Positions 9,071 to 53,552 are shown, counted from the stretch's first letter. The stretch is DNA of 58,832 nt from Methanomassiliicoccales archaeon UBA147 (GCA_002496385.1 DAJR01000022.1:1-58832), one strand, 5' to 3'. A program made the numbers and translations. Notes: a model not told the origin generated them from the sequence alone.

Positions 9071-9149
9071 CATATAAAAGGGTTGACCGGGGGTGGGCGA
9101 AAGTATTAGCCCGGTAATCGACATCGTTTCTCAAATGGCGATTACCGGG
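9071..9149 (-). promoter_or_regulatory. TATA-like box for the rpa operon plus an upstream 11-bp inverted repeat
   Basis: Minus-strand TTTTATATG at 9071-9079. CCCGGTAATCG (9110-9120) / CGATTACCGGG (9139-9149) is a perfect inverted repeat. Confidence 0.45.
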
Positions 9150-9342
9150 AACACAATGAATCACTAATGTTTGGAGATTGTCGATTCATGGCGAATGCTG
9201 TTATTACTATCATTTAGTTACCGCATTCACCGATTGTTTGCCAAATGCTGCGAGCCAAATTGCATGGATTCAGCAAACAAATGTTTGCCATGCTATCGTC
9301 GAATACTTTGCTTTCAGTCATCCAATGTCGTATTCAACATTT

Positions 9343-14568: not shown

Positions 14569-14580
14569 TGGGACAATTGA

Positions 14581-14970: not shown

Positions 14971-15126
14971 CGCAAACAATTCGCCACTGTGGCATAGCCT
15001 GGTACACTGACCGAATCGCTTCGCGACTCGGTCGTGCCTCGATGACTTGGGTCATCTTCGGGCGCCAGCGCTACCATCTGTGGCGAGTCATACGCAAACA
15101 ATTCGCCACTGTGGCATAGCCTGGTA
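14971..15126 (+). repeat. 34-bp perfect direct repeat (14971-15004, 15093-15126) comprising 12 nt of leader plus the first 22 nt of tRNA-Thr
   Basis: cgcaaacaattcgccactgtggcatagcctggta occurs twice around an 88-bp hairpin-rich insert. Confidence 0.92.
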
Positions 15127-15178
15127 GCGCGGCTGATTTGTAATCAGCAGGTCGAGGGTTCAAATCCCTTCAGTGGCT
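15105..15178 (+). tRNA. tRNA-Thr(UGU), intronless, CCA not encoded
   Basis: Acceptor GCCACTG/CAGTGGC, anticodon arm GCTGA-tt TGT aa-TCAGC, T arm GAGGG-TTCAAAT-CCCTT. Confidence 0.95.
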
Positions 15179-15366
15179 CTTTAATTTATTTTAACAAAAC
15201 TGAAGGGATTTGAAGCTAGACCTAGTTTCGTTATTTTCAAACAAAATCAGAGAAACTAGGTCGTAGGTTCGACGAGCTTGCTCGTCGAATTAGAATATCT
15301 AACATTGGAGCGTTTCTTTCATCCTTCGCATTGCATATTATTACAAAACATCAGTGGCTCTTTAAT
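15170..15366 (+). repeat. 16-bp direct repeat of the tRNA 3' end (15170-15185, 15351-15366) enclosing inverted repeats
   Basis: tcagtggctctttaat occurs twice. Inside: antisense of the tRNA T arm (15199-15214), GACCTAGTTTC/GAAACTAGGTC (15219-15229/15252-15262), TTCGACGAGC-tt-GCTCGTCGAA (15268-15289). Confidence 0.85.
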
Positions 15367-15387
15367 ATTTTTCCAGCCACATACCGT

Positions 15388-15407
15388 GCCCTCACAGGCG
15401 GGGCATG
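15388..15407 (+). repeat. Isolated end motif of the dispersed palindromic element
   Basis: gccctcacaggcggggcatg, identical to the motif within 14581-14602 and 50069-50092. Confidence 0.75.
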
Positions 15408-48604: not shown

Positions 48605-49762
48605 TCAGGCCAATCCGGCCCTGAGCCTCTCGACCGCTTCCTGGATATGCTCGATCTTTGTGGCGTAAGAGAGCCGGATGTAACCTTCTCCGCCGGGCCC
48701 GAATCCTGTCCCCGGGAGAAGTGCGATGCCCAGTTTGTTGATGGAGAAATCCGCGAACTCCCTGCTGTTCATACCGGTCTTCGTTATGTTCGGGAAGGCG
48801 TAGAACGCTCCCTGGGGCATCACGCAGCTGAGCTTGGGGATGCTGTTGAGCCCCTTCACAAGGACATCCCTCCTCTCCCTGAAGGTCTTCATCATCGTGT
48901 CCACGAACTGCGGCCCCCTGAGGGCGGCTATCCCGCCGTGCTGGATGAACTCCGGTGTGCAGGAAACAGTGGCTTCCAGGACCATGCTCATCTTCTTTAT
49001 CAGGTCCTTCGGGCCGACAGCGTAACCCAGGCGCCAGCCTGTCATGGCATAGGATTTGGAGAACCCGTCCAGAAGTATTGTCCGCTCCTTGCACTCGTCC
49101 CGGATGGCCGCGCTGTGGTGCGGCCTGTCATAGGTCATCTTGCTGTAAATCTCGTCCGCCAGGAGGTAGATGTCCCGCTCCTCGGCGATCTCCCCCACAC
49201 GCTCGATCTCGGCCTTCGTCATGACGCCGCCCGTGGGGTTGGACGGCGAATTCATTATTATCAGCCTGGTATTTTCATCTATGACGCGGTCCAGGTCCTC
49301 GGGGTCCATGCGGAACTCGTTCTCCTCCTTCAGCCTCACGAAGTTGCCCTTTACGCCGCTGCACTGCAGCACTGCGAAATAGGTGAGGAAACTCGGGTCC
49401 TGGAGGGCGATGTTGTGCTTTCTGTCCGCCACGCATGTCACAAGATAATAGATGATGGGATTACCGCCCGGCGTGACCAGCACCTGGTCCGTGTCCGGCC
49501 TGAAGCCCCTTGTCTTCTCGACCTCATCGCATATAGCTTCCCTGAGTTCGATTATGCCGTTGGAGTTGACATACCGGGTCTTTCCGTCCTCCAGGGCCTT
49601 GGTCGCGGCCTCGCGGATGTGCGGTGGCGTGTCGAAGTTGGGCTCCCCTATCTCGAAATGAAGTATCTTCTTCCCCTGCCTCTCCAATGCCTTGGCCCGG
49701 GCCAGGTACTCGAACGCGGCATTGGGCGTGAGCCTGTTGGCCGCATCTGTGAATGATCTCAT
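48605..49762 (-). CDS. PLP-dependent class I/II (aspartate-type) aminotransferase
   Basis: IGEPNFDTP, NSPSNPTG, ADEIY, FSKSYAMTGWRLGY, PQGAFY, EGYIRLSYA. Confidence 0.93.
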   Translation of the reverse strand: MRSFTDAANRLTPNAAFEYLARAKALERQGKKILHFEIGEPNFDTPPHIREAATKALEDGKTRYVNSNGIIELREAICDEVEKTRGFRPDTDQVLVTPGGNPIIYYLVTCVADRKHNIALQDPSFLTYFAVLQCSGVKGNFVRLKEENEFRMDPEDLDRVIDENTRLIIMNSPSNPTGGVMTKAEIERVGEIAEERDIYLLADEIYSKMTYDRPHHSAAIRDECKERTILLDGFSKSYAMTGWRLGYAVGPKDLIKKMSMVLEATVSCTPEFIQHGGIAALRGPQFVDTMMKTFRERRDVLVKGLNSIPKLSCVMPQGAFYAFPNITKTGMNSREFADFSINKLGIALLPGTGFGPGGEGYIRLSYATKIEHIQEAVERLRAGLA

Positions 49763-49899
49763 ATTGACCGGACATGATTCATCCATCTGTCATATAGATT
49801 TTGCATTCTGAATCCTTAAGACTTTGTGAAATCGGTGAAATGGGATTTGAAAAATCGTATCTTTGCAAGAGTTAACAGATTGAGAGGCCTTGGAGATGT

Positions 49900-50092
49900 G
49901 GGTGTGGCCTCACCCCTCGGGCCTCGTCGCCTAATGGCACACCATTAGGCTTGCTCGCATTGATGTTTGAAAATGCATCTGAGCTACAATGCTCGTACAG
50001 CCAGGGTTCAAAGGGAGAAATGCACTCTATGCATCACCTTCATCGAAGTCGAAAACTTCGATACCCTACCCCGCCCTCACAGGCGGGGCATG
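49900..50092 (+). mobile_element. Dispersed palindromic element, forward copy (left flank of tcmP cassette); left edge approximate
   Basis: Hairpin GCCTAATGG-caca-CCATTAGGC (49929-49950), 36-bp quasi-palindrome (49957-49992), end motif CCCCGCCCTCACAGGCGGGGCATG (50069-50092). Confidence 0.7.
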
Positions 50093-50141
50093 AATGGCTG
50101 GGGGGTTGCCGGAGGGTTATCTGGCAAGCTTGGGTTTTAAA

Positions 50142-51083
50142 TCAAAACAGCGATGTTTGCTGAGAATATCCAGCCAGATCATTCCATATCTTTTTGATTG
50201 ATTCTCCTTGGAAGCTCTCAACCTTTTCCTTCAAGCCATTCACAATTGAGAGGTAGGAATCTTTACGCGCTATGTGAAGCAGATGATAATAATACTGGTC
50301 GGTTCTATCTTTACCGATTCTGATAGGCGTAACGTACAGACCCATCTTCCTGATTTCATTCATGTAAACGTCTAATATCTCATCACAATCCGAACATGAC
50401 GTAACATTGTCGCAGGCAGGTCCGAAGAATTCTTTTCTCTTGTTCGGAGGGATTCTTTCAGCAAGTCTTGTCTGGTAGTTGAGAAATGCATCAAACCGTT
50501 TCAATTTAAATATGGATAATAATGAGTTCCATTGTAGTTGAAAACCGCTTTGATCCAGGTATGCAAATACGTATTTATCGCTATGATTGTAACAACATGA
50601 TTGGATTAATTCATTTGCATCCACACAAGTTCGATTTATTTTGAATCCTAAATCTCCATAAATTTGAAAAAAGTCGTCCAGATTATCGATAGACTTTGAA
50701 GAAATATCTCCGAACTCATATAATGAAAATGGATAGTCTGTCATCATAGTTGATATTATCGGGGAACCAACCGTCCACGCTTTCCTCTCGCTTCCGGGCA
50801 AATCTTTCAGAGGCGCGATTCCAGAGCCAGAGAAGGGGTCCAAATAAACGCGCTCTTTGATATTATTACTATCAAGTATTATTCCGAAAGGTGTCAAGCA
50901 ATATGCGAGAGATATGTTCTTTAAAATCGTCCAAGGTCCCACCTGGTAATCATTTTCGGTCAGAGAACTAAGGTATTCAGCAATCAAATATTTGGCCGGG
51001 CCATCTTCTATTTCTTTTGCCTTTTTTCTTAAATGACCTGCATGTTCATAGGCCCATTCCATGGGTGTTTTTCTGGGTGCCAA
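50142..51083 (-). CDS. tcmP: Three-Cys-motif partner protein (TcmP family, SAM-MTase-like fold)
   Basis: GPWT.LK...LAY, YLDPFSGSG, DAN, FAYLDQ.GFQL.W, YHLLH. AT-rich relative to flanks. Confidence 0.75.
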   Translation of the reverse strand: MAPRKTPMEWAYEHAGHLRKKAKEIEDGPAKYLIAEYLSSLTENDYQVGPWTILKNISLAYCLTPFGIILDSNNIKERVYLDPFSGSGIAPLKDLPGSERKAWTVGSPIISTMMTDYPFSLYEFGDISSKSIDNLDDFFQIYGDLGFKINRTCVDANELIQSCCYNHSDKYVFAYLDQSGFQLQWNSLLSIFKLKRFDAFLNYQTRLAERIPPNKRKEFFGPACDNVTSCSDCDEILDVYMNEIRKMGLYVTPIRIGKDRTDQYYYHLLHIARKDSYLSIVNGLKEKVESFQGESIKKIWNDLAGYSQQTSLF

Positions 51084-51093
51084 TTTTAATCTC

Positions 51094-52167
51094 CTATAGC
51101 GTGCAATTACACTTCACTCTCTTCCACCGCATCCCGACTTCCCGCCACATCCCCACTGTCTCCTTGCACATGGCCACATCGCACTTCGAGTCATGCTCGC
51201 GTATCTTGTCGATGAGCATTGTGTACATCTCCAGGCGGATATCATCGGGCGCTTTCAGACCCCAGTTGGAGCGGTCGCTGAGATATTCGATCCAGGATTT
51301 GTCCTTGCAGAAATTGATGGTGCTCTGCAATCCCCTAAGAGAACCGAAGGTTATGCGCTCCGGTTCGAGACTCTGGTAGATGAGGTCAACCAGATTCGAA
51401 TAGTTCTTTCTCCAGTACCTTGTGGGGACCATGGGGTCTATCCTGAGACGGACCTTGTAGCCAGCGTCCTGGAGCTGGCTGGCTGCCTTGATTCTCTGCA
51501 ACGGGGATGGGGCTTTCCTCTCCCATTTCTTTGCTATGGGGAGGGCGTTGACGCTGAAGCTGGTGATTATGCTGTCCTGAGATTCGGATTTTAGAATTCC
51601 GGCGATGTTGGCGGACTTGGAAACCAGCAGAAGTTTGTGGCGGTCCTGAGCCTTGAAAAGTGGGATTATATCCTTGGAGATGCTGAATTCCTTTCCCTCA
51701 TAGACCAGGGAATCCGACAGTTCTCCGGAATTGAGCACGGATGGCGTTCTCTCGGCCCTGAGATATTCCTCGATGTGGGCCAGCACCTTGGCTTTGTTCT
51801 TCAGGTACGGAGCCTTCCCCATGGGTCGGAATCGTAATGTACCGTTGAGGTAGCACCAGGCACAGTCAAAGTTGCACCCATTCGCCCATTTGAGTTCCAT
51901 GAAGTGTGGGCATACCACATCCGTATCCAGCTTTGGCGTAGGTGTTTTATCGAAAAGCGTGATGATTGAACCATCCGCGACCTGGGTTATCATGCGTTTT
52001 TTAGTCCCGGTAATCGTGTTCAGTTCTTTGAAAAGACTGCTAATGTGGCCTCCGGTGTTAATTCGCAAACAGGTTATGTCTGGCCGCAGCTGAAACTCCC
52101 TCTGTGCCTCTGAAATACTGAAGGATGCTGCCATATTTTCTCCGAAATTCCCGTTCTTGGATTGCAT
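51094..52167 (-). CDS. Spore photoproduct lyase-like radical SAM protein
   Basis: CPHF..W.NGCNFDCAWCYL (CxxxCxxC), NSGELSDSL, SFSVN, WE...PSP..RI.AA, RLRIDP. Start uncertain. Confidence 0.8.
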   Translation of the reverse strand: MQSKNGNFGENMAASFSISEAQREFQLRPDITCLRINTGGHISSLFKELNTITGTKKRMITQVADGSIITLFDKTPTPKLDTDVVCPHFMELKWANGCNFDCAWCYLNGTLRFRPMGKAPYLKNKAKVLAHIEEYLRAERTPSVLNSGELSDSLVYEGKEFSISKDIIPLFKAQDRHKLLLVSKSANIAGILKSESQDSIITSFSVNALPIAKKWERKAPSPLQRIKAASQLQDAGYKVRLRIDPMVPTRYWRKNYSNLVDLIYQSLEPERITFGSLRGLQSTINFCKDKSWIEYLSDRSNWGLKAPDDIRLEMYTMLIDKIREHDSKCDVAMCKETVGMWREVGMRWKRVKCNCTL

Positions 52168-52250
52168 CGAACCTATTTAGTTGTTGGTACCATATAAGAA
52201 GGAACATGGGGTCTCCGAAACTACTTCACACCTGCACCTGGCCCTCCCCC

Positions 52251-52455
52251 CATGCCCCGCGTGTAAGCGCGGGGTCGTGGCCCGGTTTGCGGAACCGGGC
52301 TGGTGAGGCGATTCTCTTTCTTTCATCCTTTGAGGCCTGGCCTGTACGAGCATTGTAGCTCAGAAGCATTTGTTTACATCAATACGAGCAAGCCGAGTGG
52401 CGCACCATTCGGCGATGAGGGCCAGGAGGTGTTGACATCGACATCCATCCCGGCC
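52251..52455 (-). mobile_element. Dispersed palindromic element, inverted copy (right flank of tcmP cassette); right edge approximate
   Basis: 52341-52420 is a close reverse complement of 49921-50000. End motif reads CCCCGCGCTTACACGCGGGGCATG on the minus strand (52251-52274). Confidence 0.7.
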
Positions 52456-52575
52456 CCAAAGCTCCGGCACCGGTCAACCAGATGCCCGTGCTTCCACAAA
52501 AGCTAGAGAGAATAGTCAGCCATGCAAGAGCTTGGAAAATGGACCCCGGCCTTTACGCCGAATTTAAATTCGGCT

Positions 52576-52750
52576 AACTCGCATTGATGTTCGCAGATTG
52601 CCAGGAAGCTACAATGCTCGTACAGCCGAGGTTTCCCTGTTTGGCAACTGTCCGAAAATGCATTCTATAAGCGCACTCGGTGTCAAAATGGTTCCAAACC
52701 CCGCCCTCATAAGCATTGTAGCTCATTGACATTTGTCAACATCAATGCGA
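52576..52750. repeat. Forward copy of the element truncated in its end hairpin and fused to an inverted core fragment
   Basis: Core at 52581-52617, then aatgcattctat, then CCCCGCCCTCA (52699-52709), directly followed by an inverted core at 52713-52748. Confidence 0.7.
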
Positions 52751-52997
52751 ATGAGACTAATTGCTCATTATCATAAATGAACCGCAATTAGTTGCACAGG
52801 CAGGGCATGCTGGTTGGATATAGACGTGCGGGTTTGCATGCCGATGGCAGGTTTGGGCACCCAGCCAACCATCCCTATATTCAGTTCCGGCCAACCGCCC
52901 AAAACACTCCCGCACCCTCCTCGTTCCAAACCCCAGCAGGCTTCGGATACCGACAAAAAGTATATTAGCCAAGAAGGCCTATATTTCGCTCGATAGC

Positions 52998-53552
52998 ATG
53001 AAAGGCAAGCTCCCGGTAAGCGAGATCATGACCGCTGAGATACCGCAGATGGAACCGTTCGAGTCGATCCAGGATGCCGCCGCCGAGATGGTGGAGCACG
53101 GCACAGGCTGCGTCATCATCACCGAGGAAGGCAACCCCGTGGGAATTGTCACGGAGCGCGACATCGTCCGCAAGGTGGTGAGCGCGCGCAAGAACCCGGC
53201 CCGGGTCCAGCTCAGGGACATCATGAGCTCCCCTGTTGTTTGGATACCCCGGAACACCGACATACTGGAAGCCGCCAGGCAGATGGCCAAGCTGAAACTC
53301 AGGAAACTGGCCGTGATGCATGACGGCCGATTGCTCGGTGTCGTCTCCGCCCAGGATATTCTGGGAATCGCGCCGCACCTGATCGAGGTCACCAGGGAAC
53401 TGGCAAACCTCTCCGGCGAACAGGACGACATGCTGGCCGCTTCGGTGGAACAGGCTTCGGGATACTGCGAGAGCTGCAAGGCCTACTCGGACATGCTCGA
53501 ATATTATGATGGCGAGCTGATATGCCCCGGATGCAAGGAACGCCTGGAATAA
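52998..53552 (+). CDS. Tandem CBS-domain protein with C-terminal zinc ribbon
   Basis: VSEIM, VGIVTERDIV, DIMSSPV, LLGVVS, then CESC...CPGC. Confidence 0.9.
   Translation: MKGKLPVSEIMTAEIPQMEPFESIQDAAAEMVEHGTGCVIITEEGNPVGIVTERDIVRKVVSARKNPARVQLRDIMSSPVVWIPRNTDILEAARQMAKLKLRKLAVMHDGRLLGVVSAQDILGIAPHLIEVTRELANLSGEQDDMLAASVEQASGYCESCKAYSDMLEYYDGELICPGCKERLE

Follow-up and report, generated by a model that had tools for sequence, protein, structure and literature searches.

What does a two-gene cassette do, and how did it arrive, when it lies between two housekeeping genes of an archaeal genome and is bracketed by inverted copies of a short repeat? The question is raised by a stretch of 58,832 nucleotides from Methanomassiliicoccales archaeon UBA147 (GCA_002496385.1 DAJR01000022.1:1-58832, hereafter the window), which is contig C19 of a 2.0-Mb metagenome-assembled genome (MAG; 86% complete) whose closest named relative is a Methanomassiliicoccales MAG. 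An earlier note on this DNA had described a tcmP gene and a radical S-adenosylmethionine (SAM) gene resembling spore photoproduct lyase (SPL), here called rSAM, as a pair packaged between inverted repeats. The reading we favour, with somewhat better than even confidence, is that rSAM and TcmP are encoded by a self-contained accessory cassette and form one nucleic-acid enzyme, that the flanking repeats are residents of the genome, and that the cassette arrived through recombination at such repeats. By analogy with related loci, the pair would most likely function as a module of two subunits for DNA modification or defence.

The cassette is an insertion that moved. Alignment with the empty sites of sister genomes places an inserted block of 3,033 bp between an aminotransferase gene and a gene for a CBS-domain protein (Table 1); in the sister genomes the sequence ..CTTTTGCATG.. 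runs straight into sequence matching the window from position 52840 on. The comparison covered the six of seven same-genus genomes that have a readable site, and in all six the aminotransferase and CBS genes are adjacent, with a spacer of 90-150 bp (415 bp in one). Across the seven same-genus genomes, no match to the rSAM protein improved on E 3e-5, and the protein was found in only two of 40 relatives searched, one of these two copies being truncated by a contig end, while TcmP was found in four of the 40. The pair is thus supported as an accessory, horizontally moving unit rather than one fixed at this locus. In another genome, G004 (L021; G004:C136, 5311-5726), the aminotransferase/CBS spacer holds ~400 bp of AT-rich short tandem repeats of the TTCACT/CTACAAT type, so that the intergenic site is variable there in another way.

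The organization of the pair proved to be as first described: both genes lie on the minus strand with a gap of 10 bp, and tcmP is AT-rich, the G+C content stepping within the cassette from 51.3% in rSAM to 39.2% in tcmP, against ~58% in the flanks. These are the only two open reading frames (ORFs) of the cassette, and no transposase or invertase gene lies within or beside it. The same cassette was found on Logan contig L004 (amino-acid identity 95% for rSAM and 78% for TcmP), downstream of a gene encoding 1265 amino acids and hence at a different locus; the homologue of that gene in the present genome, on contig C30, has no cassette and is followed by unrelated sequence. Further contexts, all mutually different, are those of L054 (rSAM 80% identity), L053 (76%), L069 (76%), L071 (78%), L027 and L077, the last being the one extra contig, without motif flanks, that a metagenome scan with TcmP recovered. 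Constant in all contexts are a promoter-like leader (..AATACTTTC..TTATATA..CTAAATAGG..ATG), the rSAM gene and a tcmP gene; upstream of rSAM the promoter region is kept in all contexts examined, by direct reading in L004, L027, L053, L054, L069, L070 and L077. The pair is extended in L053 (4675-9299), where the order is GIY-YIG, rSAM, TcmP, a methyltransferase of 413 amino acids with a weak Methyltransf_31 match just below the Pfam cut-off, and DUF1848; this gene set is possibly a larger version of the system. Searches of viral collections gave no PHROGs match for TcmP, one weak match for rSAM (E 1.5e-6) and, in IMG/VR, one good relative (45%). A viral origin was rejected on these matches, the family being not mainly viral.

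The rSAM product is SPL-like, in line with the earlier prediction, without being SPL proper. It passes the Pfam SPL family (PF20903, 62.9 bits against a cut-off of 27), carries the cluster motif CxxxCxxC as CNFDCAWC (C98-x3-C102-x2-C105) and has an SPL-like fold, and thus shows all the defining features of the SPL superfamily (PF20903; RadicalSAM.org megacluster 5-3). Its structural model (predicted local distance difference test score, pLDDT, 84.3) returned SPL entries at ranks 1-6 in Foldseek (4fhc/4fhf; E 7e-11, template-modelling score (TM) 0.57-0.60), the next radical SAM enzyme being weaker by five orders of magnitude, and a profile search of PDB sequences found SPL as the sole match (E 4e-15). 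Against the SPL equivalog models it scores below cut-off (TIGR04070, 80.1 bits against 400; TIGR03886, 41 against 437). The hydrogen-atom donor of SPL is Cys140 in Geobacillus thermodenitrificans and Cys141 in Bacillus subtilis; profile alignment to 4fhg, a C140S mutant, places at this position Glu149, which is invariant in the rSAM family. Beyond the cluster motif, C86, H88, C334, C353 and C355 are invariant across 25 family members, a pattern that suggests an auxiliary metal site (Fe-S or zinc) with no SPL counterpart. Nor is the protein DUF5131, to which it is no more than remotely related: PF07505 gave no match at E<=0.1, and the two profiles aligned weakly, with an hhalign probability of only 53% (E 1.3e-4) over 108 columns. 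No PADLOC model matched rSAM at E<=0.1. DUF5131 and SPL have been placed as sister subgroups 5-2 and 5-3 of one radical SAM megacluster (PMC9477430).

TcmP passes NCBIfam TIGR04474 (60 bits, E 3.3e-16, cut-off 53, model positions 14-261 of 263) and reaches 57.2 bits when the genome is searched in six frames. The best PDB matches to its AlphaFold model (pLDDT 87.6) are RlmJ chains (E 3e-8 to 1e-6, TM about 0.5), so that TcmP is predicted to adopt an RlmJ-like class I SAM-methyltransferase fold; a SAM-methyltransferase fold had been proposed before. Further structural matches are Trm1, RlmCD and METTL5, RsmD and KsgA appear as weak sequence matches, and motif I reads DPFSGSG. The protein represents a very divergent branch of its family, with 60 bits compared with 222 for the partner found in Methanobacterium formicicum, and it lacks the C-terminal GMT-like winged helix-turn-helix (wHTH) domain of that protein. 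Four PADLOC PDC-M41A models are matched by TcmP (best E 1.8e-10) and none by rSAM, which leaves the PDC-M41 set incomplete.

The two proteins are recurrent partners. A scan of one genome per species yielded 26 loci with rSAM relatives, to which those of M. formicicum and L004 were added; TcmP-like neighbours were identified with an iterated hidden Markov model built from neighbour genes. A TcmP-like gene lies beside rSAM or is fused to it in 19 of these 28 loci, the scan spanning Methanobacteriales, Methanocellales, Thermoplasmata, Halobacteriota, Asgard archaea, Nitrospirota, Thermodesulfobacteriota, Dehalococcoidia and others. The neighbour in M. formicicum is a canonical TcmP complete with its GMT-like wHTH domain, and in two loci the pair is a single TcmP-rSAM polypeptide (L040, 719 amino acids; L042, 703). 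The canonical partner of TcmP, which we take from the family description to be a DUF5131 (PF07505) protein, is represented here by an SPL (PF20903) protein, and the neighbouring three-Cys-motif protein expected for the family is the CNFDCAWC ORF 10 bp upstream. Genuine DUF5131 (50-328 bits) precedes TcmP in three other Thermoplasmata genomes (G016, G019 and G035), with identical gene order. The partner is thus neither DUF5131 nor a one-off: the pair, which recurs and keeps the order of DUF5131-TcmP, is an SPL-type version of the same two-gene logic, and the earlier description of rSAM as a non-canonical partner has to be revised.

Moreover, the two genes evolve unevenly. Between the window and L004, the rSAM genes differ with a ratio of nonsynonymous to synonymous divergence (dN/dS) of 0.055 at a dS of 0.45, while for TcmP dN is six times that of rSAM and dS is saturated. 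Among rSAM proteins 76-95% identical, TcmP identity falls to 25-48%; examples are L053 versus L071 (rSAM 90%, TcmP 29%) and L069 versus L071 (89% and 25%). This divergence among close rSAM proteins, together with the G+C step inside the cassette, indicates that tcmP has probably been replaced repeatedly beside a conserved rSAM. We infer from these sequence comparisons that rSAM may be the conserved catalytic subunit and TcmP an exchangeable subunit that selects the target.

The relatives also supply the functional context. Restriction-modification genes occur in at least five of the loci with rSAM relatives: HsdM-HsdS-rSAM in L043, an N6_Mtase followed by the TcmP-rSAM fusion in L042, a helicase, the fusion and an MmeI-like methyltransferase in L040, an Eco57I/TaqI_C methyltransferase adjoining the pair in L030, and ResIII and RE_endonuc adjoining rSAM in L039. 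Furthermore, the DUF5131-TcmP pair of G035 comes after an Eco57I/TaqI_C gene. The genes behind PADLOC's PDC candidates are ones that lie embedded within known defence systems (bioRxiv 10.1101/2024.01.29.577857). Since relatives are fused or form part of restriction-modification operons, it is plausible that the pair acts on DNA or in defence, and this part of the DNA-modification, repair or anti-viral module proposed in the earlier note is supported.

As a mechanism, rSAM and TcmP would act together as a single enzyme whose substrate is nucleic acid, in all likelihood DNA. The conserved rSAM would cleave SAM at its 4Fe-4S cluster and carry out radical chemistry on a base, as in spore photoproduct lyase, while the fast-evolving, exchanged RlmJ-like TcmP would bind SAM and select or present the target. 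The net effect might be a DNA modification serving a restriction-modification-like, self/non-self or anti-restriction role. The cassette would most likely have arrived, and be able to move on, through recombination that involves such repeats and GCATG-containing sites, either at them or between them. Less likely than this are a transposition for which the cassette itself codes and an inversion switch of the programmed kind.

Table 1. Coordinates of the cassette, its flanking repeats and neighbouring genes in the window
Feature	Position	Strand	Description
Aminotransferase gene	48605-49786		left-hand neighbour of the cassette
Left border of block, TTTGCAT	49800..49806	.	direct repeat of 52833-52839; conserved aminotransferase-gene promoter region
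Inserted block	49807-52839		3,033 bp; cassette plus repeats, including E3
Left flanking element, E_L	49835..50117	+	outer module, ~75-bp middle module, type-A hairpin (ATCGAAG/CTTCGAT), 7-bp hairpin + CATG (50069-50092), G-rich tail GGTTGCCG
tcmP	50142-51083	-	313 amino acids, 39% GC; TIGR04474
SPL-family radical SAM gene	51094-52167	-	357 amino acids; PF20903; CNFDCAWC
Cassette's own promoter region	52168..52225	-	TATA-like CTTATATGG at about 52191-52199; conserved AGTTTCGG..AACTAAATAGG leader
Right flanking element, E_R	52226..52431	- (inverted)	G-rich tail, CATG + 7-bp hairpin (52251-52274, compensatory C-G -> G-C change), type-B hairpin GCCCGGTT/AACCGGGC, middle module; outer limit uncertain, possibly about 52486
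Third element copy, E3	52487..52839	+	terminal hairpin 52699-52709 + 52797-52809, interrupted; ends ..GTGCGGGTTTGCAT at block's right border
CBS-domain gene	52998-53552		right-hand neighbour of the cassette

The flanks contain a 24-nt motif, CCCCGCCCTCACAGGCGGGGCATG, on the plus strand within E_L and in a copy with three mismatches on the minus strand within E_R. Both CATG ends point inward, and from the elements ending in GGGGCATG it is 49 bp to the stop of tcmP and 83 bp to the start of rSAM, which agrees with the approximate distances given before (~50 and ~85 bp). A 90-nt inverted repeat is common to the two flanks (49911-50000 versus 52342-52431, 81% complementary), and a G-rich ..GGTGCCG module carries the elements ~25 nt inward beyond GGGGCATG. 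When the flanks of three cassettes are aligned, they define one family of elements of 200-270 bp, composed from outside to inside of an outer end (CACAAAAGGATGA..GCCATCTGTGCAAGAGC), an optional middle module of ~75 bp, a variable hairpin with a stem of 8-9 bp, the 7-bp hairpin, CATG and often a G-rich ..GGTGCCG tail. Despite differing sequences of the first hairpin, the inner ends all fold as two hairpins (z -2.8 to -6.0), with -16 kcal/mol and z -5.97 for E_L and -19.8 kcal/mol and z -3.05 for E_R. Among 43 distinct variants of the 7-bp stem, nine are compensatory, six G-U and 26 broken, broken pairs thus being commoner. A scan of 49700-53100 against Rfam gave no match at E<=1, so the repeats do not represent a described RNA family.

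Outside the cassette, the repeats are abundant. The non-coding parts of the block form a mosaic whose modules are found again at more than 20 further loci in the genome, and with up to two mismatches the motif has 25 copies in this genome and 12-55 in every genome of the genus (reversed controls, 0 in each case), so that it is no product of chance. Beyond the genus it occurs elsewhere in that family and, within the order, in a single genus belonging to a second family; the 19 genomes that represented other orders of the class all lack it. Copies are intergenic throughout, barring overlaps with probably spurious ORF calls, and their orientation relative to genes follows no rule, the CATG end facing a 3' end in 19 cases and a 5' end in 16. 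Inward orientation is nothing special in itself, and inward-facing pairs are not enriched: at the positions listed, neighbouring motifs form about 18 direct, six inward and four outward pairs. One inward pair encloses a housekeeping riboflavin operon in G007, an operon that has the same place in the present genome with different repeat copies, so that an inward pair is no proof of cargo, and we rejected it as such. Cassette flanks lack such repeats in L077, L053 and L069 and on the readable side of L027. We conclude that the flanks are resident repeats resembling repetitive extragenic palindromic (REP) sequences and miniature transposable elements with inverted repeats (MITEs), which mark a variable, recombination-prone site and are not dedicated packaging; the earlier picture of a pair packaged between inverted copies is replaced accordingly.

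Several observations illustrate the behaviour of the family. In E3, an insert of 87 bp (52710-52796) sits precisely at the loop of the terminal hairpin of 7 bp (CCCCGCCCTCA / insert / CAGGCAGGGCATG); it contains, in reverse complement, the middle module of the element itself, and the split junction has a 99%-identical copy at C24:13653-13769. Elsewhere in the window, the 3' end of a tRNA-Thr gene at 15105-15179 (CAGTGGCTCTTTAAT) is duplicated downstream at about 15354, where it supplies the variable hairpin's 5' arm in the motif copy at 15384-15407, and two further motif copies lie at 14580 and 14870; this case suggests that elements of the family either insert at neighbouring sequence or copy it. 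A palindrome, (T)TTYCAGCATGCTG(RAAA), having GCATG in common with the window's motif end, was seen near the cassettes of L027 (3869) and L053 (4613), ~35 nt upstream of the G-rich tract in both, and of L069 (2237), ~110 nt past tcmP. When tried as an alternative cassette border, the palindrome TTTCCAGCATGCTGGAAA gave one occurrence per locus in L027, L053 and L069.

Two other loci show mirrored, inward-facing copies around different genes. In G006 (L022; G006:C154, 5318-8300), an extra mnmA-like gene and a segment of 2.5 kb lie between aminotransferase and thiM genes; the segment consists of a degraded MmeI/HsdR_N-like gene and a GNAT acetyltransferase gene between two inverted element copies with identical hairpins, one of which lacks the ~75-bp middle module. 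In G012 (L059; G012:C134, 1313-6620), two plus-strand motifs 87 bp apart and then two minus-strand motifs surround a 5.1-kb island encoding a BglII endonuclease, a GHKL ATPase and two endonucleases resembling Holliday-junction resolvases, with an HNH endonuclease and an N4/N6 DNA methylase just outside.

A number of findings weigh against our reading, some concerning function and others movement. The window TcmP has DQSG where most partners have DP.G, so the protein may, judging from this residue change, be catalytically inert. Its best fold match, RlmJ, is an rRNA N6-methyladenosine methyltransferase, which leaves room for an RNA substrate. No nuclease, methyltransferase or specificity gene lies beside the window cassette, so that the defence role here rests on the relatives, and the substrate and chemistry of TcmP pairs are themselves deduced from context and fold only. 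As for movement, a 7-bp direct repeat, TTTGCAT, delimits the 3,033-bp block; the 24-nt hairpin-CATG abuts the 5' end of the cassette with the same junction in the window and L004, while the adjoining hairpin modules differ; and the mirrored copies in G006 and G012 bracket restriction or defence cargo.

These last points bear on an alternative that we consider unlikely but still worth serious weight, namely that the cassette is an element-bounded mobile unit, the inverted elements of ~250 bp being the ends of a non-autonomous transposon, or cassette-capture sites, mobilised in trans. Inverted copies of one element family do stand on both sides of the cassette, and the junction with it (CATG followed by GGGGG..GGTGC) is the same at the different loci of the window and L004, where the cargo again lies between inward-facing motif copies. 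The near-identical inverted copies around the MmeI-like fragment and GNAT gene of G006, the mirrored double motifs around the BglII, GHKL and Hjc-like island of G012, the TTTGCAT repeat at the block borders and the compensatory changes in the 7-bp stem, which point to a recognised structure, are all of the kind such a unit would leave. However, the element bodies at the two cassette loci are not orthologous: what they share is confined to the 24-nt motif junction at the rSAM side, the hairpin types are swapped, the modules differ, and the downstream copy in L004 is just about 55 nt. The right-hand TTTGCAT belongs to a repeat module and the block it delimits spans E3 too, so it is hardly a clean target duplication. 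Direct motif pairs outnumber inward ones, the inward pair around the riboflavin operon is conserved in position between genomes, and close relatives of the cassette in other lineages do without such flanks.

Nor is a transposase associated with the elements. In seven of eight genomes of the genus one or two Y1_Tnp matches occur at a single locus, and the nearest motif copy to the Y1 transposase is 1.2 kb away, past tRNA and toxin-antitoxin genes. The genome's only Y1 (IS200-like) transposase gene has directly downstream of it a member of a second repeat family (G000 C42:1737-1995) of ~200 bp with three hairpins and at least 25 copies in the genome, for example at 9107-9308 of the window; another copy of this family lies upstream of rSAM in L054. 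A system of REP sequences and REP-associated tyrosine transposase (RAYT) was rejected for the motif, the Y1 transposase being flanked by this other family.

That the pair modifies RNA and not DNA is distinctly unlikely. Under this alternative, rSAM and TcmP would modify rRNA or tRNA in the manner of RlmN/Cfr, for instance to confer resistance to a toxin or antibiotic that targets the ribosome. The best structural matches of TcmP (RlmJ, Trm1, RlmCD and METTL5) are all RNA methyltransferases, its weak sequence matches to RsmD and KsgA agree with them, and the window cassette stands alone, without DNA-targeting genes. Yet the nearest relative of rSAM by both sequence and fold acts on DNA, relatives lie in or near HsdM/HsdS, MmeI/Eco57I-type and ResIII restriction genes, and the extreme variability of TcmP suits changing DNA targets better than an invariant rRNA site.

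An invertible cassette, in which a recombinase would flip the gene pair as a phase switch at inverted 7-6-7 sites (CCCCGCC-CTCACA-GGCGGGG), is very unlikely. The sites have the inverted orientation and the build of a recombinase core, with inverted arms of 7 bp and an asymmetric spacer of 6 bp, and the cargo is oriented relative to the type-A and type-B flanks in opposite ways in L004 and the window. But the promoter lies inside the segment and would flip along with it, so that nothing obvious would be switched; no recombinase gene is nearby, the neighbours being the aminotransferase and CBS-domain genes; the right-hand site deviates at three of 24 positions; and the swap of hairpin types is expected by chance in half of cases, both types being multi-copy and the loci different. 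Finally, that rSAM is a genuine SPL-type DNA repair enzyme and TcmP its accessory protein is scarcely credible, for although SPL is the best match by Pfam, PDB sequence and fold, the protein falls short of both equivalog cut-offs, has Glu149 at the hydrogen-donor position and four extra invariant cysteines of which SPL has none, and occurs in a non-sporulating anaerobic archaeon with a patchy mobile distribution and an obligatory TcmP partner.

Returning to the accessory cassette with resident-repeat flanks, TcmP pairs are already catalogued (NCBIfam, PADLOC candidates), and our literature search found no functional study of TcmP or DUF5131. What this locus adds is a minimal, promoter-equipped two-gene version with a clean empty-site comparison showing the pair moving as a unit, evidence that tcmP was replaced among the members of a tight rSAM clade, and an account of the repeat family. 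The hairpin-ended repeats, of which we found no description for Methanomassiliicoccales in the literature, are a previously undescribed type of genome feature in this group that marks variable, defence-rich regions. If the product of rSAM and TcmP is a new DNA modification, radical SAM chemistry would join the epigenetic and defence repertoire. The division into a conserved and an exchangeable part provides a testable model, in which TcmP picks the target and rSAM does the chemistry, along with natural sets of alleles. A bolder combination, which we consider rather improbable, would couple a programmable radical-SAM DNA modification, in which a swappable, fast-evolving TcmP aims a nearly invariant radical enzyme at different DNA sequences, to hairpin-CATG repeats at which recombination shuffles defence cargo between sites of this lineage's genomes. 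The pair would then be a radical-chemistry counterpart of restriction-modification, and the repeats might amount, in archaea, to a means of cassette capture comparable with integron attC sites or REPINs.

Among known systems, the closest are the pairs of TcmP with three-Cys-motif proteins (DUF5131, PF07505, phage Gp37/Gp68), for which NCBIfam TIGR04474 gives the definition and which PADLOC lists as its candidates PDC-M41 and PDC-M30. The window pair resembles them in a TcmP that passes TIGR04474, in the tight spacing with the Cys-motif enzyme upstream and TcmP downstream, and in the patchy mobile distribution with restriction-modification neighbours, and differs in that the upstream enzyme is an SPL-family protein of 357 amino acids instead of a DUF5131 protein of ~235, with neither a PF07505 nor a PADLOC match, and in its divergent TcmP without wHTH. 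With SplB of G. thermodenitrificans (PDB 4fhc/4fhf; TIGR04070), rSAM shares the partial TIM-barrel radical SAM fold and CxxxCxxC with a tyrosine after the third cysteine; in contrast to SplB, with which its identity is only 18-19%, it falls below the equivalog cut-off, has glutamate for Cys140 and the extra invariant four cysteines and histidine, and it is found with an obligatory TcmP partner in non-sporulating anaerobes.

Type I and IIG restriction-modification systems, with their HsdS and TaqI_C/MmeI-type target recognition domains, likewise combine a conserved catalytic component with a hypervariable, swappable partner, and rSAM relatives lie physically within such operons. Unlike these systems, the window cassette lacks a nuclease, an N6-methyltransferase and an S subunit, the chemistry of rSAM and TcmP would be radical-based, and a specificity role of TcmP is a deduction. 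The repeats, for their part, recall REP sequences and bacterial interspersed mosaic elements (BIMEs), REPINs, MITEs and the ends of IS200/IS605 elements in being short, abundant, intergenic and lineage-specific, in their conserved hairpin ends with compensatory stem changes and in their modular, nested build; one single-copy Y1 transposase per genome is a further likeness. They differ in that this motif does not flank the Y1 transposase gene, in that no clear target duplication was found, and in their asymmetry, the outer end being different from the hairpin-CATG end, so that they are not MITEs with terminal inverted repeats.

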